From an uncultured Candidatus Saccharibacteria bacterium (GTDB lineage: Bacteria; Patescibacteriota; Minisyncoccia; Phycocordibacterales; UBA9973): a stretch of DNA of 64,000 bases. Positions 9,942-44,098 of the stretch are shown piece after piece (positions within the stretch are counted from its first letter, which is position 1; each line of letters begins with the position of its first letter). The position numbers and the translations under genes were made by a program. The stretch covers positions 18,161 through 82,160 of the forward strand of contig CAZYBS010000002.1 in the NCBI GenBank assembly GCA_964645245.1, in the 5' to 3' direction. Below the pieces are notes generated by a model. It worked only from the letters and a program-made list of their open reading frames with translations, was not told where the DNA came from and searched no databases.

Positions 9942-10010
9942 AATGCAAAGTGAAATTAGAAATTGCCCCGCCTTCGCTAAAGCTACGGACGGGCAGGCAA
10001 AATTGCAAAT

Positions 10011-11777
10011 ATGGTGAAAGATAAAGAAAAGAAAATATGCCAGAACTGCCGTGGTGAATTTACTATAGAGCCCGAGGATTTTAATTTTTATGAAAAGATA
10101 AAGGTACCGTCACCGACTTTTTGCCCGCTTTGCCGAGCGCAGAGGCGAATGGCTTTTAGAAATGAGCGGAAACTTTTTAAAGTTAAAAATCATTTTACTG
10201 GTCAAGATATTTTCTCTACATATCCGGAAGAAAGCGGAAGAAAAATTATTACCCGGGAAGAGTGGTTTGGGGACAGTTGGGATGCGATGAAGCATGGAAG
10301 TGACTATGATTTTTCAAAGCCTTTTTTAAAACAACTAAAAGAACTTGATAAAGAGGTGCTAGTTTTTAATTATAATGTTCTTAGGATGGTTAATAGTCCA
10401 TATGCATTTAACGCCTCAGGTTTAAAAAATTGTTACCTTATTGTCAACTCTAGTTATTCAGAAGATTGCATGTATGGTAATGCAATAGATTTTTGCAAAG
10501 ACTCAATAGATAACTCACATATAACTCACTCTGAGCGATGCCATGAATCTTTTTGGTTGGAAAATTGTTATCAATGTTATTTTACAATAATGTCAGCAGA
10601 TTCTCGCAATCTGTATTTTTGTAGAGATTGTGTTGGCTGTAACGATTGTTTCGGTTGTGCAAATTTACGCAAGAAATCTTATTGCATCTTTAATAAGCAA
10701 TATTCTAAACTAGATTATCAGGAAGAGCTTAAAAAAATGAATCTTCAAACTATTTCAGGCTTATCAAAGGCACACAAAAAGGCAAGAGAATTCTGGAATA
10801 CCCAACCAATTAAATGTCATCAAGGATTAAAAAATTTAAATTCAACAGGCTCCTACGTAACAAATTGTAAAAATGTGAATGATAGCTATTTAATCAGAGA
10901 AAGTGAAAATATGCGTTATTGCCAATATCAACAAATACCGGGGAACAAAGATTGTTATGATGTAACTAATTGGGGAGAGTACACAGAACTCAGTTATGAA
11001 ACAGTAGAATGTGGTGATAATTCTTATTGCGATAAGTTTTCTAAAAATTGTTGGCCTGCCTGCAGGAATAATGAATATTGCATAAACCTTTTCAGCTCAT
11101 CCGATTGTTTTGGTTGCGTAGGGCTAAAGAAAAAACAATATTGCATTTTGAATAAACAATACACTAAGGAAGAATATGAAAAAATGGTGGAAAAAATTAA
11201 GCAGCATATGGATAAAATGCCTTATGTTGACTTACAAGGCCTCGTTTATAAATACGGGGAATTTTTTCCAATAGAATTTTCTCCTTTTGGATATAATAAT
11301 ACACTTGCTATGCAACATTTCCCGTTAAGTAAAGAAGAGGTAATGAAAAAAAATTATGGATGGGTGGAAGTACCTCGCGGTGAGTATAAAATAACTAAAA
11401 AAGCGGAAGATTTACCAGATTCAATTGAAAATGTTGCAAATGAAATCCTAAAAGAAGTTTTTGAATGCGATAGTTGTAAAAATCCTTATAGAATATTAGA
11501 AAATGAATTTATATTTTATAAAAAAGAAAAACTGCCGTTACCCCGCTTGTGTAGTGAATGTAGGCACGAGCGGCGCATTAAGGACAGACTTAAATTGTTT
11601 TTATACGAAAGGACTTGCATGTGCGCAGGTATTATAGACCAGACCAATACGTATAAAAATACTATTTCCCATATTCATAAAGATTTTCCTTGTGGAGAAA
11701 GATTTAAAACCGGATATGCTCCCGGCCGACTGGAGATAGTTTACTGCGAAAAGTGTTACCAGCAAGAAGTTTATTAA
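10011..11777 (+). CDS. Cysteine-rich multi-CxxC protein, paralog 3
   Basis: 588 aa with the conserved N-terminus CQNCRGEFTIEPEDFNFYEKIKVPSPTFCPLCRAQRRM and C-terminus ...YCEKCYQQEVY. Confidence 0.8.
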   Translation: MVKDKEKKICQNCRGEFTIEPEDFNFYEKIKVPSPTFCPLCRAQRRMAFRNERKLFKVKNHFTGQDIFSTYPEESGRKIITREEWFGDSWDAMKHGSDYDFSKPFLKQLKELDKEVLVFNYNVLRMVNSPYAFNASGLKNCYLIVNSSYSEDCMYGNAIDFCKDSIDNSHITHSERCHESFWLENCYQCYFTIMSADSRNLYFCRDCVGCNDCFGCANLRKKSYCIFNKQYSKLDYQEELKKMNLQTISGLSKAHKKAREFWNTQPIKCHQGLKNLNSTGSYVTNCKNVNDSYLIRESENMRYCQYQQIPGNKDCYDVTNWGEYTELSYETVECGDNSYCDKFSKNCWPACRNNEYCINLFSSSDCFGCVGLKKKQYCILNKQYTKEEYEKMVEKIKQHMDKMPYVDLQGLVYKYGEFFPIEFSPFGYNNTLAMQHFPLSKEEVMKKNYGWVEVPRGEYKITKKAEDLPDSIENVANEILKEVFECDSCKNPYRILENEFIFYKKEKLPLPRLCSECRHERRIKDRLKLFLYERTCMCAGIIDQTNTYKNTISHIHKDFPCGERFKTGYAPGRLEIVYCEKCYQQEVY

Positions 11778-11819
11778 GTGATATCAATATCATCATACTA
11801 GTGTGCTAGTATAAAAATT

Positions 11820-13544
11820 ATGAACAGTGAAAATAAAAATTGTCAGAATTGTAAAAAAGACTTCATCATCGAGCCGGAGGATTTTAATTTTTATGAGAAA
11901 ATAAAAGTTCCGCCACCGACTTTCTGTCCGGAGTGCCGGCTTCAAAGGCGCATGGCTTGGCGCAACGAGCGCACCCTTCATAGAAATAAGTGCGCCAAAA
12001 CAGGCAAAAGTTTGATTAGCTGCTTTTCTGCCGATTCGCCATTTACCGTTTACGATAGGGATATTTGGTGGGGAGACAAGTGGGATCCTACAGCATATGG
12101 AGTGGAATATGATTTCTCAAAGTCTTTCTTTAGCCAGTTCCGCAAACTTTTAGAAAAAGTTCCTCATCCAAATCTTTTTATAGGAAAATGCGTTAATACT
12201 TTCTATGGAAATTATATTGGTGAATTTAGAAATTCATACCTTGTATCAGCATCTTGGGTCGGAGATAACATAGCTTACGCATCACGTTGCAATAACTGCA
12301 AAGATTCTGTGGATATGTTTACCGTCAATAACTGTGAATTTTCTTATGAAGATGTTTCTTCTTCTAAGTGTTACGAAACTTTTTTCTCGCACAACGCTGA
12401 TTCCTGTACCAGTTCTTATTTTCTTTATGATTGTAAAAATTGCATAAATTGTTTTGGTTGCACATCACTTCGTAATAAATCTAACTGTATGTGGAACAAG
12501 CAACTTACCAAAGAAGAGTATGATAAAAAGTTTAAGGACTTAGATATTGGAAGTTTCGAAAATTTTAAAAAAATACAACAAGAATTCGAGGGACTTAAAT
12601 TAAAAGCTATTAGAAGATTTGCTAATATTATAAATTCTACTAATGTTTCTGGGGATGATATATTTCATTCTACTAATTCTCACTATTGTTTTGCTATATC
12701 AGATGATGTGAAGGATTGTAAGTTCATAATTAATTCTCTTGATCGTCTGTATAATAGTTATGATGGATACGGAACTGGTGCCAATACGGAATTGGTTTAT
12801 GAGGGAATGGACTCTGGCGTGAACGGATCCAGACAGTTATTCGTGCTTACAGTCTGGGAGTGCATGAATACAGAATATTCAATTAATTGTCATGGGTGCA
12901 ATAATATTTTTGGTTGCGCAGGCCTCCGTAAGAAAGATTATTGCATTTTTAACAAACAATATTCAAAAGAGGAATATGAAAAAATCAGGGCTCAGATAAT
13001 TGGACAGATGAATAAAATGCCATACGTTGACAAAAAAGGTCGTTCGTATAAATACGGGGAGTATTTCCCAGTGGAAATTTCTCCATTTGGATATAATGAA
13101 ACTGTATCGCAAGACTACTTCCCGCTTTCTAGAGAAGAAATTTTGAAGAACGGCTATAACTGGGTTGAACGAGAGAAACCAGAATATAAAACCACTTGTA
13201 CATCTAAAGATTTACCAGATCACATTAAAGATACTGATGAAAGTATTTTAAGTTTAGTCATTGAATGCGAATCCTGTAAAAGACCTTATAAAATTATTGA
13301 AAACGAGTATCTTTTTTTGAAAAGATTTAGTCTGCCGATACCACGGAAATGTTTTGAATGTCGCCACCAAGAACGATTTAAAAAGGTTAATCCGCCTAAA
13401 ATTTATCATAGGCAATGCATGTGCGAAAAAGGAAATCATTCTCATGGAGCAGGGAAGTGTACGGTAGAATTTGAAACATCCTACGCTCCCGACAGGCCTG
13501 AGATTATTTACTGCGAAAAATGTTACCAGCAGGAAGTGTATTAA
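11820..13544 (+). CDS. Cysteine-rich multi-CxxC protein, paralog 4
   Basis: 574 aa with the same N- and C-terminal modules (CQNCKKDFIIEPEDFNFYEKIKVPPPTFCPECRLQRRM ... FETSYAPDRPEIIYCEKCYQQEVY). Confidence 0.8.
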   Translation: MNSENKNCQNCKKDFIIEPEDFNFYEKIKVPPPTFCPECRLQRRMAWRNERTLHRNKCAKTGKSLISCFSADSPFTVYDRDIWWGDKWDPTAYGVEYDFSKSFFSQFRKLLEKVPHPNLFIGKCVNTFYGNYIGEFRNSYLVSASWVGDNIAYASRCNNCKDSVDMFTVNNCEFSYEDVSSSKCYETFFSHNADSCTSSYFLYDCKNCINCFGCTSLRNKSNCMWNKQLTKEEYDKKFKDLDIGSFENFKKIQQEFEGLKLKAIRRFANIINSTNVSGDDIFHSTNSHYCFAISDDVKDCKFIINSLDRLYNSYDGYGTGANTELVYEGMDSGVNGSRQLFVLTVWECMNTEYSINCHGCNNIFGCAGLRKKDYCIFNKQYSKEEYEKIRAQIIGQMNKMPYVDKKGRSYKYGEYFPVEISPFGYNETVSQDYFPLSREEILKNGYNWVEREKPEYKTTCTSKDLPDHIKDTDESILSLVIECESCKRPYKIIENEYLFLKRFSLPIPRKCFECRHQERFKKVNPPKIYHRQCMCEKGNHSHGAGKCTVEFETSYAPDRPEIIYCEKCYQQEVY

Positions 13545-18163: not shown

Positions 18164-18200
18164 ACTAGAGTAATACGTTCTTTAAAATCTTTACGAAATT

Positions 18201-18244
18201 GCCACAGCAGAAAGTATCTTAATTTTAGGATTCTTTCTGCTGTG
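18201..18244 (+). promoter_or_regulatory. Perfect 14-bp inverted repeat (GCCACAGCAGAAAG / CTTTCTGCTGTGGC) in the leader of the GC-rich gene; a GCCACATGTGGC palindrome follows at ~18271-18282
   Basis: Read directly from the sequence. No U-tract follows, so it is more likely an operator or RNA structure than a terminator. Confidence 0.4.
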
Positions 18245-18305
18245 GCGAAACCCATGTTGGGCTAGCTATACAGCATGCCACATGTGGCAGAAAGGAGGTC
18301 GAGAC

Positions 18306-18929
18306 ATGTCTCGATACCTCGAAGGCACCACTCACCAACTGTGTGAACAACTGCAGGGGGCTGGCTTTAAAGAGAACGAAGTACATGTTCTCGGAGACAG
18401 ATCCCGCCTGGATCGTATTCTTGCCGAAATTCGTACTGGTGTAGTAATCGGTTCGTCGCCGGACTTGGACTCAATCAATCCAGTTCTGGTCGTGGACCGC
18501 ACTAAGGCGCCGGTTTACCCAAGGGCCATGACTGGTGGGCTCGTGCGACCCGATCTTGAGCTCACCGGGCCTGATCGTTTCAGCATCAACCATACGTTGA
18601 CTTTTCCCTTTACGACGTCCGAACCTGCGCTGGGGCAAGAGGTCTACGATAGGTGGATGAAGGACGATACGCCTCAAAGATATATCGACGGGTACGTCTC
18701 CCTGATCGACCTGATCGCGATTCGGGCCAGGGGTCCGATCTTTTACCACCTTCATTTTAGCGGAATGAAGCTGGTCGCCATGAAGTCAGCCGGTAAGTTC
18801 CACGAGAACGGGTCCGAGTTGGTCCGTGTACCATATTTGTACGAGGCAAAGAAATGTGTTCACCGTGGGTGGAGGTGGCTTGGGCACACGTTCACTCAAG
18901 AATACAAAGCGCTTCGTATCGTGACCTAG
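18306..18929 (+). CDS. Hypothetical protein encoded in a GC-rich island (probable start at the second ATG, with AAAGGAGG SD)
   Basis: ORF 18282..18929. The internal ATG at 18306 is preceded by AAAGGAGG-N7. Codon usage is GC-rich, unlike the neighbours. No recognisable family. Confidence 0.55.
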   Translation: MSRYLEGTTHQLCEQLQGAGFKENEVHVLGDRSRLDRILAEIRTGVVIGSSPDLDSINPVLVVDRTKAPVYPRAMTGGLVRPDLELTGPDRFSINHTLTFPFTTSEPALGQEVYDRWMKDDTPQRYIDGYVSLIDLIAIRARGPIFYHLHFSGMKLVAMKSAGKFHENGSELVRVPYLYEAKKCVHRGWRWLGHTFTQEYKALRIVT

Positions 18930-18966
18930 TAGTCTATACTTGTGGGTGTAATAGTTTAAACTCTCA

Positions 18967-19000
18967 GGCCGCGCGGCGTCACTCTGTGACACGCGCGGCC
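18967..19000 (+). terminator. GC-rich hairpin after the island gene (GGCCGCGCG...CGCGCGGCC)
   Basis: 9-bp perfect GC stem extended by GTCAC/GTGAC; only a weak T-tract follows. Confidence 0.4.
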
Positions 19001-19073
19001 TTCTCAATTTAATTAAATCTTTGCCTCGCCCGTAGGTCTATGGCCGAGGGAAATTTTTTGCGCTTTTAAAAAA

Positions 19074-33325: not shown

Positions 33326-34561
33326 ATGAAAAAGAATAAAAAAACTGAATTTAAATTAAATAAAATAGAAGATACTATTTTGGACATAAAATCTGGCAAG
33401 GTTGTAATCGTCGTGGATGACGCAAATCGGGAAAATGAAGGAGATTTTGTCGCAGCCGCAAGGAGTATAACTCCCGAAATAATAAATTTTGTGACGACTT
33501 ATGGGCGGGGGCTCCTATGTGTGTCCATCACGGAAGACAGGTGTAAAGAGCTTGAGCTTCCGATGATGACTTCTAAAAATACCTCTTTTCACTCTACATC
33601 TTTTACCGTTTCCGTGGATTTACTGGGCCATGGCTGCACTACTGGTATTTCCGCTCATGATCGGGCAAAAACAGTGCAGGCCCTAATTGACCCTTCTACC
33701 AAACCTGAAGATCTTGGCCGCCCCGGGCATGTTTTTCCCATTCAGGCGATGAATGGAGGAGTTTTAAGAAGAGCCGGGCATACGGAAGCAGCGGTGGATT
33801 TGGCGCGCTTAGCGGGAGTGGAACCGGCGGGCATTTTGGTTGAAATTATGAATAAAGACGGTACGATGGCTCGTTTGCCTGATTTAATGAAAATAGCGAA
33901 AAAATTTAATTTAAAGATTGTCAGCATAGAAGACCTGATTAGCTACAGATTAAAAAACGAAACTTTAATTAAAAGAGAAGTGCAGGTAAAACTCCCGTCG
34001 GAATGGGGCGATTTTGACTTATACGCTTATAGACGCACAGATACGGACGAAGAGCATTTGGCACTGGTAAAAGGAAAATGGGACAAAGACGAGCCTGTTT
34101 TGGTGCGTGTTCATTCTTCTTGTATTACCGGAGATGTTTTTGGTTCACTTCGCTGTGATTGCGGACCTCAACTTCATAGAGCTATGGAGCTAATAAATAC
34201 TCTGGGTAAGGGCGTGATTGTGTATATGAATCAAGAAGGCAGAGGGATAGGTCTTTTAAATAAGTTAAAAGCCTACAAGCTCCAAGAAAATGGTCTGGAT
34301 ACGGTGGAGGCGAATTTAAAACTCGGCTTTAAAATGGACGAACGGGATTATGGCATCGGAGCGCAGATTTTGCGGGATTTAGGTGTCTCTAAAATGCGGC
34401 TTTTGACCAACAATCCGAAAAAGCGCGCCGGACTTGTGGGCTATGGTCTGGAAATAGTGGAAAATATTCCCATAGAAATAAAATCAAATAGACACAACGA
34501 GCGATACCTCTTGACTAAACGCGATAAAATGGGCCACTTTTTTAATTTGGATGAGCTTTAA
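33326..34561 (+). CDS. ribBA: Bifunctional DHBP synthase / GTP cyclohydrolase II
   Basis: NRENEGDFV (RibB) and [20 protein letters not shown] (RibA). Confidence 0.92.
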
Positions 34562-34573
34562 AATTCCAAATTA

Positions 34574-35620
34574 TTATCTATTCACATAAGTCTGCAATTT
34601 ATCAGACCCGATTTTTTCCACTTTGGTCGGGCGTAGATTTATAACGGGCGCCTTGACGCCAGTCTTTATTTTTTTATTGGCCGTAAAGACGCGCATCTCA
34701 TCCCATAGATTATTTTTTATAAGGCTGTTCAGAAGTTGCGCTCCGCCTTCAATCATGACGGATTGGATTTTTCTTTTATAAAGCTCATTTAAAATTTGCG
34801 GAAGTATATTTTGCTTAAAATTAATTTTTACAAATTCCAAATTATGTTCCGAAACAGCGCTCCCGACTGTAAAGATTATAGTCGGCGTGCTTTTATCCAA
34901 TAAATTAAATTGCTTCGGTATTTTCAAATCTCGGTCTATTGCGATGCGCAGCGGATTTTTTCCTTTTACTTCGCGCGTTGTCAGATGCGGATTATCCAGC
35001 AGCGCTGTATTGGTGCCGACCATAATGGCCTGTGTTTGGCTTCTCAATTTATGCGTTAATATTTTATCCTGTTGATTGCTTATTGGTATTGCTTTTTTTG
35101 CGTTGTAAATATCGCGCTTGGCGTCAATAAAATGATCAGCAGTTTGAGCCCATTTTAAAATAACGTAAGGGCGTTTTTTTTCATGATAAGTAAAAAATTC
35201 TTTATTAAGTGTTCCACATTTGTTTTGGAGCACATTTACCCTTACATCAATGCCGGCTTTTTTTAGTTTTTTGATTCCTTGTCCGTTTACTTTTGCCGAA
35301 GCATCAATACAACCGATTACGACATATGGAATTTTGTGTTTAATGATTAAATCTGCGCAAGGCGGTGTTTTTCCAAAATGGGAACATGGCTCTAAATTTA
35401 CATACAGAGTGGCCCTTTTTAATAATTTTTTATCCAAAACCGAATTAATTGCATTAACTTCCGCATGGGCGCCCCCGTATTGCCGGTGATATCCAGCACC
35501 GATTATTTTATCATCAACCACAATCACGCTGCCCACCATTGGGTTGGGAGCCACTTTCCCTAAACCCTTTATCGCCAGCTTTAGGCAGCGCTCCATGTAT
35601 TTTTCATTTTTTGACGGCAT
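34574..35620 (-). CDS. ribD: Riboflavin biosynthesis deaminase/reductase RibD
   Basis: CMP/dCMP deaminase Zn motif HAEVNAI...PCSHFGKTPPCA plus a C-terminal reductase domain. Confidence 0.9.
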   Translation of the reverse strand: MPSKNEKYMERCLKLAIKGLGKVAPNPMVGSVIVVDDKIIGAGYHRQYGGAHAEVNAINSVLDKKLLKRATLYVNLEPCSHFGKTPPCADLIIKHKIPYVVIGCIDASAKVNGQGIKKLKKAGIDVRVNVLQNKCGTLNKEFFTYHEKKRPYVILKWAQTADHFIDAKRDIYNAKKAIPISNQQDKILTHKLRSQTQAIMVGTNTALLDNPHLTTREVKGKNPLRIAIDRDLKIPKQFNLLDKSTPTIIFTVGSAVSEHNLEFVKINFKQNILPQILNELYKRKIQSVMIEGGAQLLNSLIKNNLWDEMRVFTANKKIKTGVKAPVINLRPTKVEKIGSDKLQTYVNR

Positions 35621-35692
35621 ATATTTAATGATAAATTATATCATAGCTCTAAAAATCTATGTTTTCAACGATTTTTCAGGTATAATGTGTGA

Positions 35693-36028
35693 ATGTCCAA
35701 AAACGATTTATTAAAGAAAAAATGCGTGCCATGCGAAGGGGGAGTGAAGCCCTTGAGCCTAGAAGAGGCTAAAGACTATTTAGATGAAATTCCGGGCTGG
35801 ACTCTAAATGGGGAAGGCAAAAAAATCTCCAAAACTTTCAAATTTGCCGATTTCATCGGGGCGATAAATTTTGTGGAGCGCGTGGCCGACGTGGCCGAAA
35901 TGGAAAACCATCATCCCGATATTCACATCCATTATAACAAAGTCTTGCTGGAGCTCTGGACTCATGCCATCGGCGGACTTTCCGAAAATGACTTTATTGT
36001 TGCTGCGAAAATTGATGCGCGTAAATAA
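35693..36028 (+). CDS. Pterin-4a-carbinolamine dehydratase
   Basis: EMENHHPDIHIHYNKVLLELWTH. Confidence 0.85.
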   Translation: MSKNDLLKKKCVPCEGGVKPLSLEEAKDYLDEIPGWTLNGEGKKISKTFKFADFIGAINFVERVADVAEMENHHPDIHIHYNKVLLELWTHAIGGLSENDFIVAAKIDARK

Positions 36029-36037
36029 AATTTACAT

Positions 36038-36070
36038 ATCTCTAATTCGCGCGAATAGGCGAATAGTTAT
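36038..36070. repeat. Intergenic repeat R1 (ATCTCTAATTCGCGCGAATAGGCGAATAGTTAT) containing the palindrome ATTCGCGCGAAT; copy 1 of 3
   Basis: Related copies are at 40734..40766 and 47190..47257. Confidence 0.6.
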
Positions 36071-36118
36071 CTGATTAAAGTATTCTAATATTCTATAGAA
36101 TTGTAGAATGGAAATATT

Positions 36119-36159
36119 AAAGGGACGGATTGTCGTTTGACAAATCCGTCCCTTTGCGT
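36119..36159 (-). terminator. 12-bp perfect hairpin AAAGGGACGGAT-N13-ATCCGTCCCTTT, likely the terminator of the minus-strand GNAT unit
   Basis: Read directly; on the minus strand it is followed by TTTAATATTT. Confidence 0.5.
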
Positions 36160-36189
36160 TGGCCAGCGCGATGTCGGCCTTTTATCCGT

Positions 36190-36270
36190 TTACTTCTTCG
36201 GTTTGGGTGGTTCGGGAGCCTTCGGTGGTTGTGGTTTTGTGTCCTCGTCGTCTGGGCTCATGTAATACAT
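36190..36270 (-). CDS. Possible 26-aa Pro/Lys-rich peptide (MYYMSPDDEDTKPQPPKAPEPPKPKK) with a perfect SD
   Basis: AAAGGAGA lies 7 nt upstream of the ATG on the minus strand, inside the GC-rich island between the GNAT gene and the hairpin. Confidence 0.2.
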   Translation of the reverse strand: MYYMSPDDEDTKPQPPKAPEPPKPKK

Positions 36271-36331
36271 GGCTTTTATCTCCTTTCAATCAGATCCAAT
36301 CCGAAGGTATTGGTAACGGTAGCTTTCCTTT

Positions 36332-36976
36332 TTACTTTTCTTCGGACTCTAGTGGTGGAACGAGTCTATAAGCATCACGATACAGCTTATAGAGTAGCTC
36401 AACCGAGTCGCGCCTATAGTAGATTCCATCCACGTTTGCGCGAATCGCCCCCGGCAGGATCCCGACGGAGCGGAATCCTAGCTTGTGGAACAACTTGAGT
36501 GTCACCGTGTGGAAACGAGCCACAGATACGGTGGCAAGTTCAGCGCCGGATTCCTCAGCGTAGCGATCGAGAATCTTTGTCGCCGTAGTTGCCGATAGAC
36601 GTCCCCTGAAATCCGGGTGGACTACACCTAGCGTAAAATCCACTGAGAGATTCAGAGAATCCGTGCGCAAGAGTGCAGAACCAGCGATATGCCCTTCTGA
36701 CGTTTCAAGCGCGAAAACCTCATGTCCTTCCATCGGAAGGTTGCCGTACCACTCAGGTTCCAGAAGGAACCCGAACGTACCTCGATAGAGTTCCGGGAAT
36801 CCTTTTGCCCATACGTCAGCTAGCGTTTCCGCTGTCTCCCTGCTTACGTTGTTGAGTCGCTTGATTGTAGATCCGCGCCCCAAGGATTGTGGATCGAACG
36901 TGGTCCAATTCCACCGCCCTTCCTCCCATGGTTTTACTGGCGTATTGTACAGTTTAAAGTTTCTTCCCAGTTCCAT
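36332..36976 (-). CDS. GNAT-family acetyltransferase-like protein (GC-rich island)
   Basis: VHPDFRGRLSATTATKIL...FHKLGFRSVG resembles GNAT motif A. The start is assigned to the internal Met (MELGRN...) preceded by AAAGGAGA; the ORF extends to 37045. Confidence 0.5.
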   Translation of the reverse strand: MELGRNFKLYNTPVKPWEEGRWNWTTFDPQSLGRGSTIKRLNNVSRETAETLADVWAKGFPELYRGTFGFLLEPEWYGNLPMEGHEVFALETSEGHIAGSALLRTDSLNLSVDFTLGVVHPDFRGRLSATTATKILDRYAEESGAELATVSVARFHTVTLKLFHKLGFRSVGILPGAIRANVDGIYYRRDSVELLYKLYRDAYRLVPPLESEEK

Positions 36977-37268
36977 AGCTTCTCCTTTCAAAGAACAGAT
37001 TTGTCGTCTCGGAACATCCGAGCATACATGAAAGAACAAAAACACCAGCCGAGAGGGCTGGTGTTTGAGTTGTAAGTTGAGTTTTAGTTTTTTTACAGCG
37101 CAAATATCAGCCTTCTAATGGAAAGCTGGTAATAAGCATTTAATATTGAAGTATTTCTTTGTTGTTGAATATTACTATTCATATTTCGCATACTAGCATG
37201 TTTTGATAAAAAGCGCAAGCGAATTTGTAGAAGTCATAATTCCGCTTATACTATCTACTTCACTCAAT

Positions 37269-37293
37269 TAAAGTACTTTAGTTAAGTAAAGTA
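37269..37293. promoter_or_regulatory. Repeat R2 (TAAAGTACTTTAGTTAAGTAAAGTA), same as the putative operator at 40681..40705
   Basis: 24 of 25 nt are identical to the 40681 copy, and it contains TAAAGTA/TACTTTA half-sites. Confidence 0.45.
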
Positions 37294-37310
37294 ATGGATA
37301 TAAATAATAT

Positions 37311-37493
37311 TTATCTATAGCCCATTAATAAAAGTATAATTAATACACAAACTAATATTATTAATAAGGTCCACAAAAAAGCATTCCAAGGGTCTTCTTC
37401 ATTTAAATATTTTGACCATTTCTTACTTCCATCGATTAATATCAGTATTGGTAGCTGAATACATAAAAAGAAAATTGGTTCAAAAACTCCCAT
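37311..37493 (-). CDS. Small 2-TM membrane protein, cassette copy 2
   Basis: Paralog of 29614..29799 (LPILILIDGSKKWSKYLNEEDP...). Confidence 0.55.
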   Translation of the reverse strand: MGVFEPIFFLCIQLPILILIDGSKKWSKYLNEEDPWNAFLWTLLIILVCVLIILLLMGYR

Positions 37494-37494
37494 G

Positions 37495-37686
37495 TTAGTT
37501 GCACCTTACTGGTGATCTTAGCTTTTCTTTGGCGACCCAAAATTTTTCAATATAAAAACAGTTCACGCATCTTGTTCTTTGCGCTTCGACTTTGCCATAG
37601 ACTCCGTTTACCATCTTGGTTTGGTATTTTTTCATTTTGTGGCTGGTCAATAGGCAGCATTTAATTCTTAAAATTATTTTATTCAT
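37495..37686 (-). CDS. Small 4-Cys protein, cassette copy 2
   Basis: Paralog of 29418..29612 (KMVNGVYGKVEAQRTRCVNC...VRCN). Confidence 0.55.
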   Translation of the reverse strand: MNKIILRIKCCLLTSHKMKKYQTKMVNGVYGKVEAQRTRCVNCFYIEKFWVAKEKLRSPVRCN

Positions 37687-37761
37687 GGCTTTGTAAGTAA
37701 TAAAAATTTTTGGAGGAAGGGAAGGGTGATGTGCCCAACCCTTCCGCCAATGTATCTATCT

Positions 37762-38817
37762 CTATCTACTGGCTGTGATTACCGTCAGGATGCTTTCGCG
37801 CTTACCGCACCGCTGGAGGTTCCTTGCCAGTTCTGTTGCAGCTAGAAAGTTGGCACCCGCAGAGCTTGCTCCGTCGATACCAAAGGTCTTCAGTAGCCGA
37901 ACACCTTCTCTCGCTTCTTTGTCCGTAACGATACGAACTTGTTCTACGCTTGGCAGATGGTCAAGAACAAGCCTCGTCGGATCCCCGACGCCCAAACCTT
38001 CAATACCGATAACCTTTGATACTACTCGCGGGAAGTCGATATTGATGTCGAACCAGTTCTCCGGACTTCTTTGTGGATGGCAGCTGAGCGAAACTATCAT
38101 CCCCGCAGTTTCGTATGCCCGGAGGGCTTTTTCGACAGCTCTCTTTTTGACCTCGTACTTGTCTCTGGCACGCAAGTAGGCATGCCAGAGAGTTAAGGTT
38201 GAACCCACCCCTTCAACGGCTATGATTCGGGTATGAGGATTCACTTCGCGCAACGCCAATCCAATTCCGAAGAGGGTACCACCCGTGCCGACCCCAGCCA
38301 CGAGGTGGCTAGGTGCCCCGAGTCGTTCCACGATAGCCCTCCCGAATGTTCGTTTCTGGATATCGAGGATGACCGGCTGCTCGTGCTGTTCGAGCAACAT
38401 GTATCCTCTCTTCCGGCAGAGCTTTTTTGCCGTGGTGAGGCGACCGGTTCGGCCTTCGCGACGCGGGGTTTCCATAACCACTTCAATACCCATCGTCTTG
38501 AGTTTCTCGACGACGGGCCGACTGGTTTCGACGTATACAACCGCGGTGACCCCGACTCTGACCCCGAGTTCGTCTACGGCAAGTTTTACACCTTGTACGG
38601 TGTTTCCTCCGCCGACAACGACTACGGATCGAGTTGTATCCTTGATCTTCCCGGTGTCAAGGTAGTGCGCTAGCAGGCACTTGCCGATGGAGGTTTTGAC
38701 TCCAGCCGGCAATGTGTCGGCCCGAAAGAGAACAATTTTTTGTCCATGCCTTTTGGTGGTGCACAAAGGGACAGACAAAGCCCTTTCGTACTCTCTCTGT
38801 ACTGTCTCTTTGTACAC
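37762..38817 (-). CDS. PLP-dependent cysteine synthase / CBS-like (fold type II) enzyme, GC-rich; GTG start
   Basis: GVGTGGTLFGIG glycine loop and VVVGGGNTVQG. The start codon is GTG, 5 nt after AAAGGAGG. Confidence 0.6.
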   Translation of the reverse strand: MYKETVQREYERALSVPLCTTKRHGQKIVLFRADTLPAGVKTSIGKCLLAHYLDTGKIKDTTRSVVVVGGGNTVQGVKLAVDELGVRVGVTAVVYVETSRPVVEKLKTMGIEVVMETPRREGRTGRLTTAKKLCRKRGYMLLEQHEQPVILDIQKRTFGRAIVERLGAPSHLVAGVGTGGTLFGIGLALREVNPHTRIIAVEGVGSTLTLWHAYLRARDKYEVKKRAVEKALRAYETAGMIVSLSCHPQRSPENWFDINIDFPRVVSKVIGIEGLGVGDPTRLVLDHLPSVEQVRIVTDKEAREGVRLLKTFGIDGASSAGANFLAATELARNLQRCGKRESILTVITASR

Positions 38818-39047
38818 CTTTGCCTCCTTTCAAAAGATGCTCCGTGGCGGCAATTTTACCCGCCACGGAGCAAGCCGACTCGACGAGACTACCGGACGTG
38901 CATGTGCACGTGCCGGCGCGCCTTGCGGCTTACACGGATGCGCATAAAGAACAATCCTTTCTGAGCTCCTAATAGACAAGAGGTTTCTCGTCCTAGGGCT
39001 CTTGAAATTTTCTTTTGCTTTAAAGAAAACTCGGAAGAGCCCAGCGA
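38818..39047 (-). promoter_or_regulatory. Structured GC-rich leader of the CysK-like gene
   Basis: 11-bp perfect hairpin (38840-38850/38860-38870) plus UCUUUU immediately before the RBS, and a second GC hairpin at 38896-38920. Confidence 0.35.
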
Positions 39048-40208
39048 CTACACATATCTACGATCTACTTTTTCCGGGATACGACTCAAAAACTCATAAT
39101 TATTCTGTTTTATGCTCCTGCAGATTTCTTCCAGTTTTATTTCTTTTCCTTTTTGTTTTCCTAAAATAACAACCTCGTCGCCGGCCTTGATGGTTTTTTT
39201 GCTACCGATGTTCACAAAACAATTTGTCATGTTAATTCCGCCGACCAACGGATATTTAACTCCGCCAATTATTACTTTCCCTCCATTTACAAGCCGAGAG
39301 TCAAGGCCATAGGAGTAACCAGGAAGAAGAATAGCAATTCGAGTTTTCCGTTTGGCAATAAACTTTCTTCGATAAAATATGCCCTCACCCTTTTCAAGCT
39401 CTTTAATGCAGGCAATTATGGTTTTGAAAGAAACTACAGGAAACAGGTCTATTGTGCTTTTTCGTCTAGCTTCTAGTGAGGGATAAAAGCCAAAAAGTGA
39501 AATGCCAAGACGCACCATATCGAGAAGGGATTCCGAGAAAAGAAAAGCAGCTTCACTTGAAGCGATGCTCCATAAAGGAATTTTGATTTTCTCTTTTTGA
39601 CAACTTTCTTTAATCGCTATGAAGCGTTTAAATTGGATCTTGTCGAACTTTTTTTCTTCTGTAAAACTACTCAAGACACCTTCGATTTTTATGTTTTTCG
39701 ACTGCGAAACAGCACGTATAAATTTCAAAGCATCTTGATATGGCACACCAAGACGTCCTAAGCCAGTATCAATTTTTATCCACACTCCGCTTCTCATCTT
39801 GAGTTTTCTAGATACACTCTCAAAATTTCTAAGCATGGTATAGGTAAAAATAGTAGGATTAATTTGATTTTTTACGAGCTTTTCCCCATCTTCAAAACTA
39901 TATATTCCGAGGTTCACGATTGGCTTTGTAATTCCACCTTTTCTTAAAGTTATTGCTTCCTTTATTCCCACAACACCAAATACATCTATATATTTTTGAA
40001 GGGTATTGGACACACCCAAAACCCCCAAGCCATATGCATTTGCTTTCAACACCGCCATTATTTTACTTGGTTTGGTTATTCGTTTCATTTGGGCAATGTT
40101 TTTCAACAGATTTGCCTTATTAATTTCTATCCAAACTAATGGTTTTTTAATTTTTCTTTCACTATTTACAATTCTCATTTTTTTATTTTTTAAATTTCTA
40201 ATAAACAA
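39048..40208 (-). CDS. alr: Alanine racemase
   Basis: AVLKANAYGLGV PLP-Lys motif; 386 aa. Confidence 0.85.
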   Translation of the reverse strand: MFIRNLKNKKMRIVNSERKIKKPLVWIEINKANLLKNIAQMKRITKPSKIMAVLKANAYGLGVLGVSNTLQKYIDVFGVVGIKEAITLRKGGITKPIVNLGIYSFEDGEKLVKNQINPTIFTYTMLRNFESVSRKLKMRSGVWIKIDTGLGRLGVPYQDALKFIRAVSQSKNIKIEGVLSSFTEEKKFDKIQFKRFIAIKESCQKEKIKIPLWSIASSEAAFLFSESLLDMVRLGISLFGFYPSLEARRKSTIDLFPVVSFKTIIACIKELEKGEGIFYRRKFIAKRKTRIAILLPGYSYGLDSRLVNGGKVIIGGVKYPLVGGINMTNCFVNIGSKKTIKAGDEVVILGKQKGKEIKLEEICRSIKQNNYEFLSRIPEKVDRRYV

Positions 40209-40254
40209 AAACCCCTGCCTAAACTTAGGCAGGGGTTAGCTTCAAAAAATAAAT

Positions 40255-40662
40255 TTACGAGCTTAAAGATAACCCACGCCTAAGTTTAGGTGAGTTGTGG
40301 TGATGTGAAGAGACATTAGAAAGGCGAGCGAGGATTAACCTGTACCCGCCGAGCGAGCCGTAGAGCCACTTTGCGATGCGGGCAATGGTGGCGGAAGAGA
40401 GACCGGTAGATTCACTGATTGCATTATATTGCACGTCATTGGCAAGGAGCCGGGCGGCTTCAAATCTGTTTGTGAATTCTTTGATTTCCGCCGGTGTCAT
40501 CAAATCGCGAAGAAAACGCTTGGTCTCATCGGCATTTTTGAGCTCCAAAATTCCAGCAATTAATTGCCTGTTTTCCTTAGTATTCCAGTCCATATCCGGG
40601 CCAATTTCTTGTATTAGCCGTACGGTTCTTATGGATGTATTTTTATTCATTCCTTTACTCAT
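40255..40662 (-). CDS. TrpR-like (YerC/YecD family) DNA-binding protein, paralog 2
   Basis: MTPAEIKEFTNRFEAARLL...AISESTGLSSATIARIAKWL. Confidence 0.6.
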   Translation of the reverse strand: MSKGMNKNTSIRTVRLIQEIGPDMDWNTKENRQLIAGILELKNADETKRFLRDLMTPAEIKEFTNRFEAARLLANDVQYNAISESTGLSSATIARIAKWLYGSLGGYRLILARLSNVSSHHHNSPKLRRGLSLSS

Positions 40663-40666
40663 ACAG

Positions 40667-40706
40667 CTACTTTAGCAGACTAAAGTACTTTAGTCAAGTA
40701 AAGTAG
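40667..40706. promoter_or_regulatory. Nested palindrome CTACTTTAGCAGACTAAAGTACTTTAGTCAAGTAAAGTAG (includes the 14-bp perfect palindrome CTAAAGTACTTTAG) 5 nt upstream of the TrpR-like start
   Basis: Read directly; it is made of TAAAGTA half-sites. Confidence 0.5.
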
Positions 40707-40733
40707 CTAGGGGAGGTGTGGATAACTTATTAT

Positions 40734-40766
40734 ATCCCTAATTCGCGCGAATGAGCCTATACTTAT
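40734..40766. repeat. Intergenic repeat R1 copy 2 (ATCCCTAATTCGCGCGAATGAGCCTATACTTAT)
   Basis: Shares ATC(T/C)CTAATTCGCGCGAAT with 36038..36070. Confidence 0.55.
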
Positions 40767-40781
40767 TGCAAGTAATTGATA

Positions 40782-41363
40782 TTAGGCAGGGAATTTGCCT
40801 TCAAAGATTATTTCTTCCAGGGGCTTTCGGTTGCTTGGGGTCTCGCGGGCGCGGAGGTCTTCTGGCAGGTCTTCAATTTTTCCAGGTTTGCCGACAGCAA
40901 TCATCATTTCTACATTGTAATCGTCGGGGACGCCTAGCTTTTCCTTCGCCATTTTATAATCAAATCCTTCCATACCGTGAGCAACGAGTCCCATAGTTTG
41001 CGCCTGGAGAGCCAAATTTTCCCAAGCAGATCCAGAGTCAAAGGAGTGAGTGATGGAGAATTTTCCACTAGTGCTTGTTTTTTTGGAAATCGTTACGATC
41101 AACGCTCCAGCATTTTTGCACCAATCTTTATTAAATTGCACAAGAAAGGAAAATAAATTCTCAAATTCCGGCGTATCCCGCATAGCATATATAAATCTCC
41201 ACGGCTGGGCATTGTAAGAAGACGGCGCCCAGCGGGCGGCCTCAAAAAGAGTTATCAGTTCTTCTTTGGAAATTTTTTCTCCCGACATCGCCCTCGGCGA
41301 ATGCCTTTTAAGAAACATGTCGTCAATGGGGTATTCTGTTGTCCTTCCGTTTACTGTTTTCAT
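40782..41363 (-). CDS. Nitroreductase family protein (moderately GC-rich)
   Basis: RHSPRAM and APSSYNAQPWRF. Confidence 0.8.
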   Translation of the reverse strand: MKTVNGRTTEYPIDDMFLKRHSPRAMSGEKISKEELITLFEAARWAPSSYNAQPWRFIYAMRDTPEFENLFSFLVQFNKDWCKNAGALIVTISKKTSTSGKFSITHSFDSGSAWENLALQAQTMGLVAHGMEGFDYKMAKEKLGVPDDYNVEMMIAVGKPGKIEDLPEDLRARETPSNRKPLEEIIFEGKFPA

Positions 41364-41377
41364 CTATCCAGTATACA

Positions 41378-44098
41378 CTACCTGTCAAGTAGAAATTTCT
41401 CTATTATCTTCCCATCTCTTTTGAGCCAGGCGATGTTGCCTTCTAGGCGTTCTAGGACCTGGTCTATTGCGCGCTTGGCGCCGGGGGCTTCGTGGGTGGC
41501 GAAAAATTTTTTGAAAGATTTTAGGTGTTTTTCTTCGGCGCTGCCACCGATGGTTTTGATTAAACGTGCCAAGTGATGTCCGCCTTCACCATAGCGGGAG
41601 ACGAGAGTTTTCCAATTTTTACTTATGGAAGACCACCAGATATCGCGCCCGGGGGGGTTTGAGGCTACGGAAGAGAGGATGCCGACTGTATCTTGTATGC
41701 GCACATCTTTTGAGAAGGCAAAATGGGTTACTTCGCACAACACTTTATCTTGCGTGAAGTCCCCCAATGCATTTCCGATTCGGTTTTTTTCTTCGTGGAG
41801 AGTTTCTTTTTTATACCTCGCCACAAGGGCTCGGTATTCCTTCATTCCGCCGTGTGTGGCGATGATAGAATACACGGCTCCGCGGATGTCTGGGTGAATA
41901 TGGCCTGTCCTGAATTTATTTTTTGCTTCTTTAATTATTTTTTTATCACCGGCTCTGCCGGCGCGAGAGATGGCAAGGGAACGCAAAAGGGCATCTGTAT
42001 GAGTTTCTTTTGGTTTTTTGTTCCAGCCCAATTTATGCGCAAGAGGGGAAAATAATTCAAGAATAAGCTTTTCCAGTTGTTTTCCCGCTTTCTGCGGGAC
42101 CCCGCCAACGGCGGTGGTTGCCATTATTTGTTCCAAGCGGGCAAGCCCGCTTGCGAGTTCCACCCACACGGTGTAATTGTCTTCTTTTTTATAAGCATCT
42201 AAAAATTCCAAGGCATCGGTGGTGGGAATTGTACCTGCTTCGGCCAGGGCAAAAAGGTCACGAATGATGCCGAGCCTGTCGCGAGGAGATAATATTTTCT
42301 TTTCTACTGGCATTTTTAATTTTTCTAAAAGTTTTCCGGAATAAGCCGTCCGATAAAATCCAGCTTCGCCAAAATTTATTTTTAACCAGTTTGTGCCCCT
42401 CGTTGCAGGCACACTTTTTAGAAAGCCTTGCGCAGGCGGGTAGCCGAGCAGTTCGCTCCCAAAGCTTTGGGAGATAGATTGCTTTATAAAAAGTTGTGCC
42501 AAGAAAGAGGGGCGAAATTGCGACGAGTTTTGGCTTTTTATAGATATCGGTATTTGCCAGGTAGTTTTATCCCCTCCACGGCGGGCAAGTTTGGATTTCT
42601 TCTTTGATATCGGACTGGCGAAGAATCTTTCTTGAGACAAAAGAATTTTATTATTTTTTATTTTAGCTTTTATGACCGGGTAGCCACCTTTGCTCGTCCA
42701 ATTGTGCATTATCTTGGCCACGGGTTTCTTGGAAACTTTCTCAAAAGCCTGCCAGAGATGCACCGTTTCGGTATTTCTATAACTATGCTTTTTTAAATAA
42801 TAGCGTAGTCCATCACGAAAATCTTTTTCACCCAAATAGTCGGCCAGCATACGAATAATACATGCTCCTTTGGAATATGATACTTCATCAAAAATCTCGC
42901 CAATTTCATCCGGATGATGCACAGGTATTTCTATCGGATGCGTATGGAGAAGTCCGTCTAACTGTAATGCTCTGCCAAGTTCGTTGGTAGAGAACTGCGT
43001 CCAAATATCCCACTTTGGAAAAAGTTTATCAACCGCCAAGTATTCTATGTATGAAGCAAAACCCTCATTAAGCCATAAATGCGTCCACCACTCCATCGTT
43101 ACCAAATTGCCGAACCATTGATGAGCCATCTCATGGGTGATAACTAATGCCACCCATTGTTTGTTTGAGGCGGAAGAATGCTCTTCATCCACAAGAAGCG
43201 TGCTCTCGCGGTAAGTAATTGCGCCCCAATTCTCCATCGCCCCGGAAGCAAGGTCCGGAATAGCTATCATGTCCAGAGTATTGAGTGGATAGGCAATATC
43301 AAAATATCTTTCATAAAAGTCTAGAGTCTTGACCGCGCACTCCAAGGCAAATCTTGCCTGATGTTTTTTGCCCGGGGTGGTGTAAACCCGCACCCTGACC
43401 CCCTCGCCCTTGGCACTCCCCCTTCGCAGGGGGAGAGGGAACCCTCCCCTCCTTTTTGAGGAGGGGTTTGGGGTGGTTGCTTCTATATATTCAAAGTCTC
43501 CCGCAATGAAAGCAAGAAGGTAAGTGGACATTTTTGGCGTGGGAAGGAATTTTACAATTTCAAATCCGGCTTCGTGTTCTTGCACGGATGCGGGCAAAGT
43601 ATTAGAAATAACCGTTTTGCCCTTCGGAATAACCATTGATATATGAAATATCGCTTTTTGGGCGGGCTCATCAAAGCAGGGGAAAGCCCGGCGCGCGTCG
43701 GTCGCTTCAAATTGGGTGGTTGCCATATATTGCTCTTTCCCATTAAGAAAATATTTACTCTTATAAAATCCGCGCATTTTATCATTGAGTATTCCCTTAA
43801 AGACAAGAGTTAATTTAACTTTGCTAGTTGGAATAATTTTAGGAAAAAGAAAAGTTACTGTTTCGTTTTTTTCATTATAAGAAATTTTTGCATATACTTT
43901 ATTTCTTCCAGCCATTATCTCAGCAGTTTCTATCTCAAGTTCTTTAGAGTGCAGAATCAGTATTTTCGTCTTTTTTAAGATATTTAGGGTTATTATTTCG
44001 CTACCCTCAAAAGTGAAGTTTTTTAAATCCGGGCGTAATTGGATATCGTACTTAATTGGAACAACATTTTTTGAAAGGCGGACATTTCTATTTTTCAT
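41378..44098 (-). CDS. pepN: Aminopeptidase N (M1 family)
   Basis: HEMAHQWFGNLVTMEWWTHLWLNEGFA (HExxH...E); 906 aa. Confidence 0.9.
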   Translation of the reverse strand: MKNRNVRLSKNVVPIKYDIQLRPDLKNFTFEGSEIITLNILKKTKILILHSKELEIETAEIMAGRNKVYAKISYNEKNETVTFLFPKIIPTSKVKLTLVFKGILNDKMRGFYKSKYFLNGKEQYMATTQFEATDARRAFPCFDEPAQKAIFHISMVIPKGKTVISNTLPASVQEHEAGFEIVKFLPTPKMSTYLLAFIAGDFEYIEATTPNPSSKRRGGFPLPLRRGSAKGEGVRVRVYTTPGKKHQARFALECAVKTLDFYERYFDIAYPLNTLDMIAIPDLASGAMENWGAITYRESTLLVDEEHSSASNKQWVALVITHEMAHQWFGNLVTMEWWTHLWLNEGFASYIEYLAVDKLFPKWDIWTQFSTNELGRALQLDGLLHTHPIEIPVHHPDEIGEIFDEVSYSKGACIIRMLADYLGEKDFRDGLRYYLKKHSYRNTETVHLWQAFEKVSKKPVAKIMHNWTSKGGYPVIKAKIKNNKILLSQERFFASPISKKKSKLARRGGDKTTWQIPISIKSQNSSQFRPSFLAQLFIKQSISQSFGSELLGYPPAQGFLKSVPATRGTNWLKINFGEAGFYRTAYSGKLLEKLKMPVEKKILSPRDRLGIIRDLFALAEAGTIPTTDALEFLDAYKKEDNYTVWVELASGLARLEQIMATTAVGGVPQKAGKQLEKLILELFSPLAHKLGWNKKPKETHTDALLRSLAISRAGRAGDKKIIKEAKNKFRTGHIHPDIRGAVYSIIATHGGMKEYRALVARYKKETLHEEKNRIGNALGDFTQDKVLCEVTHFAFSKDVRIQDTVGILSSVASNPPGRDIWWSSISKNWKTLVSRYGEGGHHLARLIKTIGGSAEEKHLKSFKKFFATHEAPGAKRAIDQVLERLEGNIAWLKRDGKIIEKFLLDR

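Follow-up and report, generated by a model that had tools for sequence, protein, structure and literature searches.

The gene for a divergent pyridoxal 5'-phosphate (PLP)-dependent enzyme in an uncultured Candidatus Saccharibacteria bacterium appears to belong to a native module of a small clade of Patescibacteria (the candidate phyla radiation, CPR), where a conserved leader containing a tiny histidine-rich open reading frame (ORF) may gate its expression. The gene lies in a stretch of 64,000 nucleotides (GenBank assembly GCA_964645245.1, contig CAZYBS010000002.1, positions 18,161 to 82,160), which is referred to here as the window and whose first letter is position 1. An initial annotation of this DNA proposed that the PLP gene, a gene for a GNAT-like protein and a nitroreductase gene are GC-rich accessory genes with strong Shine-Dalgarno (SD) sites, acquired from a GC-rich donor that was possibly a host. 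We favor, with a probability of roughly 0.6, a different interpretation in which these are three unrelated things: a native, leader-gated PLP module, a separate GNAT cassette exchanged within the CPR, and an ordinary nitroreductase. Mechanistic statements about the leader, the PLP enzyme and the GNAT protein are drawn from comparative sequence analysis.

The PLP module is the third of the window's GC-rich islands. It has the order TrpR-like gene, alanine racemase gene (alr), long hairpin, His-rich mini-ORF, stable GC hairpin and PLP gene. The same arrangement is found elsewhere. In all 13 homologous loci that extend upstream, the PLP gene is located directly 3' of alr, and a TrpR-like gene is present 5' of alr in every locus that reaches that far (11 of the 13). 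Pairwise identities between the PLP enzymes track those between the alr products (r=0.67, Mantel p=1e-4). Even between the window and locus L007, which form the closest pair, synonymous divergence (dS) is ~1.0 in the PLP gene and 0.84 in alr. On this comparative evidence the PLP gene is judged to have been co-inherited with alr since the origin of the clade, and the island as a whole is best described as a native module passed on by vertical descent. In a second sample, an independent contig (L002) encodes identical proteins in an identical gene order, so the arrangement is not an assembly chimera.

The PLP family is small. Approximately 29 members with 50-79% identity are present among 5.8 billion proteins, and the next matches are ordinary CysK proteins at 27-28%. 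No relative outside the family, and no non-CPR sequence, exceeds 29% identity. When one genome per species is taken from GTDB, four carriers are found, all of them metagenome-assembled CPR genomes (labeled Magasanikbacteria, 'Parcubacteria' and 'Saccharibacteria'), and JGI metagenomes supply eight further PLP loci. The family thus represents an undescribed, CPR-restricted branch of the cysteine synthase superfamily that is locked to alanine racemase.

The GC-rich character of this gene is a lasting property rather than a trace of recent arrival. GC content in 400-nt sliding windows is 0.51-0.55 at 36200-37000 and 0.52-0.57 at 37800-39000, against a window mean of 0.393. Per-gene statistics refer to 60 ORF-derived genes in the window, whose start codons were picked with a bias toward SD matches; their mean GC is 0.395 (sd 0.055). 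On this scale the GNAT gene (GC 0.521, GC at third codon positions (GC3) 0.517) stands ~2.3 standard deviations above the mean and the PLP gene (GC 0.538, GC3 0.571) ~2.6, whereas the flanking alr (0.353) and ribD (0.386) are AT-richer. The contrast with the flanks that was first reported for these two genes is therefore real. In the homologous loci, GC at codon positions 1 and 2 of the PLP gene exceeds the locus median in 11 of 11 cases, by 0.04-0.13. GC3 is above that of alr in ten of the 11, and is the highest or second highest of the locus in seven. Because the excess recurs across loci whose synonymous sites are saturated, it is a maintained property of the gene and not the fading signal of an import.

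Part of this excess resides in the protein. Compared with native proteins, the PLP enzyme is rich in Gly (9.7 vs 6.5%), Arg (9.1 vs 4.6%), Val (12 vs 5.7%) and Thr, and poor in Asn (1.7 vs 5.3%), Lys (6.3 vs 9.1%), Ile and Phe. A composition rich in Gly, Ala, Arg, Val and Thr and low in Lys, Asn, Ile and Phe is kept across the family. As judged from these comparisons, the GC excess is composed of amino-acid composition, elevated GC3 in most lineages and a GC-rich structured leader. A single-gene GC3 excess that spans synonymously saturated lineages is also a puzzling observation on selection at synonymous sites. There is a caution here for annotation: in a CPR genome that is AT-rich and poor in SD sites, GC-rich genes with strong SD sites may have been resident for a long time, and composition alone would have mis-called the PLP gene as a host-derived horizontal transfer.

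Translation initiation signals divide the window's genes in a similar manner. As first described, native genes are mostly SD-poor, with 38 of the 60 matching over 4 nt or fewer despite the SD-biased choice of starts. Only three of the 60 match AAAGGAGGT over at least 7 nt, namely the GNAT gene, the PLP gene and a gene at 18306-18929. The sequence AAAGGAG(G/A) sits 7-9 nt 5' of the GNAT gene, the PLP gene and a 26-codon micro-ORF that follows the GNAT gene. Perfect SD sites of 7-9 nt are thus found at the three GC-rich genes and this micro-ORF, and the His-rich mini-ORF has the 6-nt AAAGGA. This distribution suggests that two translation-initiation classes exist within one genome. The ORF list, independent gene calls and the N-termini of homologues are consistent with the coordinates given for the genes and with a GTG start for the PLP gene.

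Between alr and the PLP gene is a 230-nt GC-rich leader (38818-39047) in which alignment of homologous loci reveals three conserved modules: the long hairpin, the mini-ORF and the GC hairpin. Searches of Rfam find no riboswitch or leader family in window positions 34000-42000 (E<=1), in the whole of loci L009 and L041 (E<=0.1), or at 7600-12300 of locus L004 (E<=0.01). The sole matches in these searches are a chance match to BsrG and the 16S rRNA in L004. The leader has no Rfam counterpart and was previously unnoticed. In the literature searched we found neither a His-rich leader peptide in Patescibacteria nor a report of a CPR cysteine synthase together with alr, and no counterpart of the combined mini-ORF and hairpin leader was found there. 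To our knowledge, CPR bacteria have few recognizable regulators and almost no characterized cis-regulatory RNAs or micropeptides. This leader with its mini-ORF, and a second leader that precedes the GNAT gene, are concrete, testable candidates.

The mini-ORF has 16-22 codons in 11 distinct variants, each with an AAGGAG-type SD site, and encodes the consensus M-[KR]-[IV]-[RKT]-[VI]-N-G-x-x-R-x-H-x-H-x-H(-x-H). The variants in other loci are MRISVSRKARRHLHLHSK, MRIRIAQGNVHTHVHVHRH, MNVKVNGAVHTHAPRVRQHSK, MKVRVNGKSRKHVHCHVHRH, MKVKVNGKCRTHCHVHCHVHTR, MKIRVGKNVRQHVHVHQH, MRIRINGQSQIHCHAHSHS, MKITVRAKVRVHCHKHGK, MKVTVNGKCRKHCHVH and MTIRVNGNVRQHIHVHQH. The residues between the His positions differ, as do the codons used for Val (GTG, GTC or GTT), while the His residues themselves and the N-terminal M-[KR]-[IV]-x-[VI]-N-G persist. 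Such a pattern implies selection on translation or on the peptide. By manual count over the 11 variants, His is encoded by 38 CAC and 3 CAT codons, compared with 36% CAC in native window genes. A six-frame scan of 1.75 Mb yields other short frames with H-x-H-x-H as a scattered background, none of which has the N-terminus of the mini-ORF. The mini-ORF and the PLP enzyme co-occur strictly in all loci.

Comparison of window positions 38889-38960 with L007 5443-5529 provides a further observation. From the SD site to the 12th codon the mini-ORF is ~92% identical in DNA sequence, and codons 6-12 show no synonymous change. This identity contrasts with the dS of ~1 in the flanking genes and hints that the 5' half of the mini-ORF is under an extra constraint at the RNA level.

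Downstream of the mini-ORF, all 11 leaders form a hairpin of 13-18 bp with a predicted dG of -20 to -35 kcal/mol. Its structure is kept and its sequence is not, and it ends about 10-59 nt 5' of the PLP start. A clear U-run follows it in ~4 of the 11 leaders; U-rich tracts are found in the window (AUCUUUUG), L007 (UUCUUUAU), L010 (UAAUUUCAUUUUU) and L047 (CCUAUUUUUCUG). The window's hairpin is not called by a simple terminator scan. The long hairpin at the other end of the leader is AU-rich with a GC clamp (TCSTTG...CAAGGA) at its base, lacks a U-tail and occupies the same position in ten other loci. It might be a site of processing or of protein binding, or might serve the TrpR-like protein as an operator.

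With a translated leader and then a strong stem-loop ahead of the PLP gene, the simplest interpretation is that expression depends in some way on the leader. The interval from alr to the PLP gene contains no predicted sigma-70-like promoter. Transcripts initiated at alr, or at an unrecognized promoter, would pass through the mini-ORF and the hairpin before reaching the PLP gene. Translation of, or stalling on, the H-x-H-x-H mini-ORF, together with a hairpin acting as a partial terminator or stabilizer, would then set the amount of PLP mRNA. The effect could be that of an arrest peptide, or translation could influence termination or the stability of the mRNA, much as with tnaC. The leader resembles both hisL and the tnaC-tnaA leader in having a short, strongly translated ORF 5' of a metabolic gene, followed by a stable stem-loop. 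It shares its richness in His codons with hisL. Its likeness to the tryptophanase system is that the controlled gene encodes a PLP enzyme and that the peptide sequence is conserved. It differs from both in its lack of an Rfam leader match.

A more specific version of this control is classical his-type attenuation. Here, charging of tRNA-His would be sensed, and ribosomes stalled on His codons would favor an antiterminator and turn the PLP gene on. In its favor, each of the 11 leaders has a short ORF with an SD site and 3-5 His codons ahead of a stable hairpin, and U-rich tracts lie 3' of this hairpin in the four loci given above. However, no conserved competing pairing of the terminator's 5' arm is evident: in RNAduplex searches of the leader against the hairpin's 5' arm, candidate antiterminators are no better than shuffles (most z scores from -1 to +1.9), and the best-pairing position is inconsistent. 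The stop codon of the mini-ORF and the hairpin are 2-92 nt apart, and this interval holds 0-3 additional hairpins. Unlike those in hisL, the His codons alternate with others rather than being consecutive, the conserved N-terminal peptide goes beyond what codon sensing needs, and the regulated gene is unrelated to the His pathway. We consider this version quite unlikely, and the classical attenuator was dropped as the lead model when the RNAduplex search gave no consistent antiterminator signal.

An alternative is that the peptide itself is the product. In this case the mini-ORF peptide would be the substrate or partner of the PLP enzyme, forming a minimal pair that resembles those of peptides that are ribosomally synthesized and then post-translationally modified (RiPPs). 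MK(V/I)(R/K)VNG would serve as the recognition element and the H-x-H-x-H core as the site of modification. His imidazoles might, for example, attack an aminoacrylate intermediate to give histidinoalanine-type, metal-chelating residues, and the hairpin after the peptide would be a leaky terminator that yields precursor in excess over enzyme. This arrangement has parallels in RiPP operons such as those of pqqA and nisA, where only a stable hairpin separates a tiny peptide gene from the enzyme gene directly 3' of it. RiPP precursors likewise combine a conserved N-terminal part with a repeated, variable core containing invariant target residues. The N-terminal motif is kept and the His residues are invariant across enzymes that are only ~50% identical, the H-x repeats number from 3 to 5 with variable residues between them, and Cys is enriched (eight in total, in five of the 11 variants). 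The strict pairing of peptide and enzyme, the undetected antiterminator, the variable spacing between ORF and hairpin and an insertion in the PLP family relative to CysK point in the same direction. CysK-type enzymes are known to use N-heterocycles, pyrazole and triazole among them, as nucleophiles, which is also in its favor.

Against this pairing, no protease, transporter or tailoring gene is conserved downstream of the PLP gene, unlike in the pqqA and nisA operons, and the peptides are very short (16-22 aa). We know of no fold-type-II PLP enzyme that modifies a ribosomal peptide and of no RiPP class with a CysK-type PLP enzyme, and a literature search found no PLP or cysteine-synthase RiPP enzyme. 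A RiPP-like pair is an unlikely explanation. The fully specified form of it, a two-gene system in which a fold-type-II PLP enzyme alkylates peptide His (or Cys) via an aminoacrylate to create a metal-binding micropeptide, must be regarded as doubtful. Were it true, peptide alkylation would be a new RiPP chemistry, and a PLP beta-replacement enzyme would for the first time be seen to work on a peptide. The regulatory reading of the mini-ORF leads, and we rank it ahead of the reading as a peptide substrate.

The likely chemistry of the PLP enzyme can be deduced from its relatives. It matches Pfam PALP (PF00291) with E=5.9e-29 and 101.8 bits against a cut-off of 35, but misses the NCBIfam equivalogs for cysK (TIGR01139, 75.2 vs 350.95 bits) and cysM (TIGR01138, 42.8 vs 394.2). 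The SbnA model is also matched weakly, far below its equivalog cut-off. An AlphaFold2 (AF2) model built from the 29 family members has a mean confidence (pLDDT) of 93, and its top structural matches are CysK, CBS, beta-cyanoalanine synthase and Fn1220 (TM ~0.7, 17-24% identity). The family therefore shares a fold and the PALP domain with CysK/CysM, CBS, beta-cyanoalanine synthase, SbnA and Fn1220, but is only 17-28% identical to them.

Residues K41, N72, T73, G177-T178-G179-G180-T181 and S319 are invariant or nearly so in the 29 sequences. K41 (GVKTSIG) aligns with SVKDR of CysK and would be the Schiff-base lysine, GTGGT the phosphate loop, and S319 the serine that contacts the pyridine nitrogen, corresponding to that of SAGAN in CysK/CysM. 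The substrate-carboxylate loop reads V-x-G-x-G-N-T-V where CysK has T-S-G-N-T-G, such that G-N-T is kept and Thr-Ser is replaced. The family also carries an insertion of ~45-55 residues (about 207-262) that is absent from CysK and, in contrast to CysK, is confined to a small CPR clade in which it always lies behind alr and the His-rich mini-ORF. By these criteria the enzyme is a divergent member of the CysK/CBS superfamily and not a cysteine synthase ortholog. As the PLP lysine, the GNT loop, the GTGGT loop and the pyridine-nitrogen serine are all kept, it is most likely active, with beta-replacement or beta-elimination on a serine- or cysteine-type substrate being the most likely reaction.

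The invariable position beside alanine racemase raises another option, namely that the PLP enzyme makes a peptidoglycan precursor together with Alr, for example as a lanthionine synthase for a wall that lacks diaminopimelate, with the leader tuning its level. There is precedent in Fusobacterium nucleatum, where a CysK-like enzyme makes lanthionine for peptidoglycan (PMC11602996, PMC9600241), and Fn1220 is among the structural matches (TM 0.68-0.71). However, the PLP enzyme is no nearer to Fn1220 than to ordinary CysK or CBS proteins (17-18% identity). The family is present in a tiny fraction of CPR genomes, though most of them make peptidoglycan, and no linkage to MurE or an epimerase is seen at the PLP loci. 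This role is improbable on present evidence. A leader-gated enzyme of the CysK/CBS superfamily remains the preferred description of the module.

The second GC-rich island is a separate unit centered on the GNAT gene, and its features are listed with those of the PLP module in Table 1.

Table 1. Coordinates of the PLP module, the GNAT cassette and adjacent genes in the window
Feature	Position	Strand	Remarks
Nitroreductase gene	40782-41363	-	GC 0.452, ~1 standard deviation above the mean
TrpR-like gene (PF01371)	40255-40662	-	GC 0.456; 5' of alr wherever loci reach
Alanine racemase gene, alr	39048-40178	-	Invariable 5' neighbor of the leader and PLP gene
Long imperfect hairpin	38991-39047	-	Starts at the alr stop codon; kept in 11 loci; compensatory changes in 11 of 17 predicted pairs
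His-rich mini-ORF, 18 codons	38889-38945	-	MRIRVSRKARRHVHMHVR; SD AAAGGA at 38955-38960
Very stable GC hairpin	38839-38871	-	GCUCCGUGGCGG...CCGCCACGGAGC, then AUCUUUUG, then directly the PLP SD site
PLP enzyme gene, fold-type-II, 351 aa	37762-38817	-	GTG start; SD AAAGGAGG at 38823-38830; CysK/CBS superfamily, family confined to the CPR
Terminator hairpin of the PLP gene	37712-37748	-	GGCGGAAGGGTT...ACCCTTCCCTTCCTCC, then AAAAATTTTT; kept in L007
63-aa Cys-rich protein gene (CC...C..C...C)	37495-37686	-	AT-rich spacer; outside both islands
60-aa membrane protein gene	37311-37493	-	AT-rich spacer; outside both islands
GNAT leader	36977-37160	-	Hairpin 1 at 37108-37128, ~45-nt linker, intrinsic terminator at 37040-37066 with T-run
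GNAT-superfamily protein gene, 214 aa	36332-36976	-	SD AAAGGAG at 36982-36988
26-codon micro-ORF	36190-36270	-	MYYMSPDDEDTKPQPPKAPEPPKPKK; SD AAAGGAG at 36280-36286
Terminator-type hairpin closing the GNAT unit	36119-36155	-	13-nt perfect arms (36119-36131/36143-36155), 11-nt loop, then TTTAATATTT

The GNAT unit is an insertion or deletion of ~1.2 kb relative to the closest relative, and of the GC-rich units considered here it alone resembles an insertion. Locus L007 has the PLP terminator, two small genes and the PCD gene, but nothing that corresponds to window positions ~36080-37270. The two small genes in the AT-rich spacer encode the 63-aa and 60-aa proteins, which are each ~85-87% identical to their L007 counterparts by manual comparison and have no family match above threshold. 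A 9-nt sequence, ATTAAAGTA, is present at both borders (36073-36081 and 37267-37275). It was not counted as a target-site duplication because 1.5 kb of AT-rich DNA should contain exact repeats this long by chance alone, and three others do occur.

Assignment of the GNAT protein depends on its homologues. The window protein itself falls under the Pfam GNAT threshold (19.2 vs 23.6 bits). GNAT models are matched by five of its seven close homologues (best 2e-5), and the distant members P0248 and P0266 pass the Acetyltransf_1/_3 thresholds. Membership in the GNAT superfamily is accordingly assigned by transitive homology. The family is rare, with seven close homologues and, at E<=1e-10, ~34 clusters in a set of 1.84 billion representatives. 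Like RimI/YpeA-type members of the superfamily, it has sub-threshold to threshold Pfam matches and a compatible order of secondary structures (in a model with pLDDT 46). It differs from them in an N-terminal extension of ~55-80 residues, a C-terminal PGAIRAN...YRRDS..LYKLY motif, a degenerate motif A in the window protein and a usual operon partner, prephenate dehydrogenase.

This partnership is a clue to function. Four of the seven loci have, 1-3 nt after the GNAT gene, a gene resembling prephenate or arogenate dehydrogenases (TyrA-like; L041 2605-3249, L103 878-1891, L104 806-1543 and the JGI contig of P0125), and in L009 the GNAT gene is followed by TyrRS (8832-9998). In other CPR genomes the family thus appears to be usually translationally coupled to prephenate dehydrogenase. 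A related observation is that in L048 (746-2066) the slot from the PLP gene to PCD is occupied by ORFs with, as judged by eye, Asp/Glu-racemase-like and chorismate-mutase-like N-termini. These neighbors share an aromatic-amino-acid theme. We infer a tyrosine- or prephenate-related chemistry for the GNAT family and a genomic slot of variable content.

A leader precedes this gene as well, and it is unrelated to the one described above. Its two hairpins are kept with compensatory changes in five GNAT-family loci: the window, L009 (7860-8000), L041 (1820-1970), L103 (60-240) and L104 (1-168). It runs from a TTATTA box through hairpin 1 and a linker (which is AGTTTCAAGGCGCYGAARTA...ATTTCGACWCCTCCAA in three loci) to an intrinsic terminator. 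Hairpin 1 and the terminator have similar 3' arms, and an antiterminator alternative pairing is possible. The leader contains no leader ORF and has no Rfam match. It is a candidate riboswitch or protein-dependent attenuator. The family therefore offers a second terminator-bearing leader, placed before a rare GNAT family that is tied to prephenate dehydrogenase.

At its other end, the GNAT unit is closed by the perfect hairpin that was initially reported there, and the micro-ORF, whose product is acidic and Pro-rich, lies just before it. An 11-nt stretch, TTGAAAGGAGA, is identical in the SD regions of the micro-ORF and the GNAT gene. The analogue of the micro-ORF in L009, MKSLHYLDPRDDEDEQDNQK, overlaps the GNAT stop codon, and both share the motif Y-[LM]-[SD]-P-x-D-D-E-D. 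The micro-ORF was also considered as a relic of a TyrA C-terminus, but the C-termini of TyrA-like proteins lack similarity to it.

The nitroreductase needs no special origin. Its GC content is close to that of the neighboring TrpR-like (0.456) and aminopeptidase N (0.437) genes, and no SD site is present in the 30 nt 5' of its ATG (41363), so that neither the high GC nor the strong SD site claimed for it is borne out. More than 120 relatives are 70-88% identical to it, and all named ones are Patescibacteria (Nomurabacteria, Paceibacterota). An ortholog with 78.5% identity lies nearby in L007. It is by these comparisons an ordinary, conserved CPR gene.

With all three subjects described, the proposal of a recent acquisition from a GC-rich donor or host, in which composition and SD sites were carried over with the genes, can be weighed. 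It draws on the GC and GC3 outliers, on strong SD sites that are unique among the window's genes, on the absence of the GNAT unit from the nearest genome, and on the patchy, rare distribution of the PLP and GNAT families, which does fit the description of accessory genes of atypical composition. The nitroreductase does not fit this description, being CPR-wide and compositionally ordinary. Comparison of synteny in relatives, suggested as a check of the proposal, gives a divided result: L007 lacks the GNAT unit, but it has the nitroreductase, and the PLP gene is present in all loci with upstream sequence. In addition, the PLP gene is syntenic and co-diverging with alr at a dS of ~1, its GC excess recurs in saturated lineages, and non-CPR sequences are at most 29% identical to its product. 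All homologues that come with genomic context or names are from CPR-type genomes, and the phylogenetic grouping named in advance as refuting the proposal is thus what was found. Import from a donor or host is refuted by these comparisons for the PLP enzyme and the nitroreductase, and for the GNAT gene would survive only as exchange within the CPR; the proposal as a whole is very improbable. GNAT homologues elsewhere have GC contents of 0.47-0.53 that match their own host genes, which fits transfer from a moderately GC-richer CPR lineage. The GNAT cassette has probably been exchanged among CPR bacteria, an explanation that is better than acquisition from a host.

Several observations count against the three-part interpretation. 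For the PLP module, loci L008 and L010 lack the GC3 excess. A U-run follows only part of the hairpins, the missing antiterminator signal and the 2-92 nt spacing leave a classical attenuator unsupported, and nothing obvious connects the PLP enzyme with histidine. The conserved N-terminus and Cys excess of the mini-peptides would fit a functional peptide equally well. For the GNAT cassette, the AF2 model (pLDDT 46) is too poor to judge the fold, acetyl-CoA motif A is degenerate (RGRLSA in the window vs R-x-x-G-[LI]-[LA] in homologues), and the micro-ORF after the gene rests on two sequences only.

Other features of the window are worth noting. A terminator-like hairpin (40210-40237, minus strand) of 12 bp followed by TTTGTTTATT is located between the TrpR-like gene and alr, where Rfam gives only the chance BsrG match. 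A regulated leader may also precede alr itself.

The first island contains the third GC-rich gene of the window (18282-18929, plus strand; GC 0.534, GC3 0.60), which encodes 207 aa from the ATG at 18306. The protein has no Pfam or PADLOC match, and PADLOC likewise finds no defense-system match for the GNAT or PLP proteins. This gene has the best SD site in the window, AAAGGAGGT, and GC-rich hairpins flank it on both sides (18190-18250 and 18965-19005) in a 'style' that is shared with the GNAT and PLP units.

A 16S rRNA gene follows the PLP gene in the Magasanikbacteria locus L004 and also in L005 and L006. The L004 gene (9654-11456) spans 1803 nt compared to the 1533 positions of the model, which indicates an insertion, and a GIY-YIG ORF is called inside that stretch in L005.

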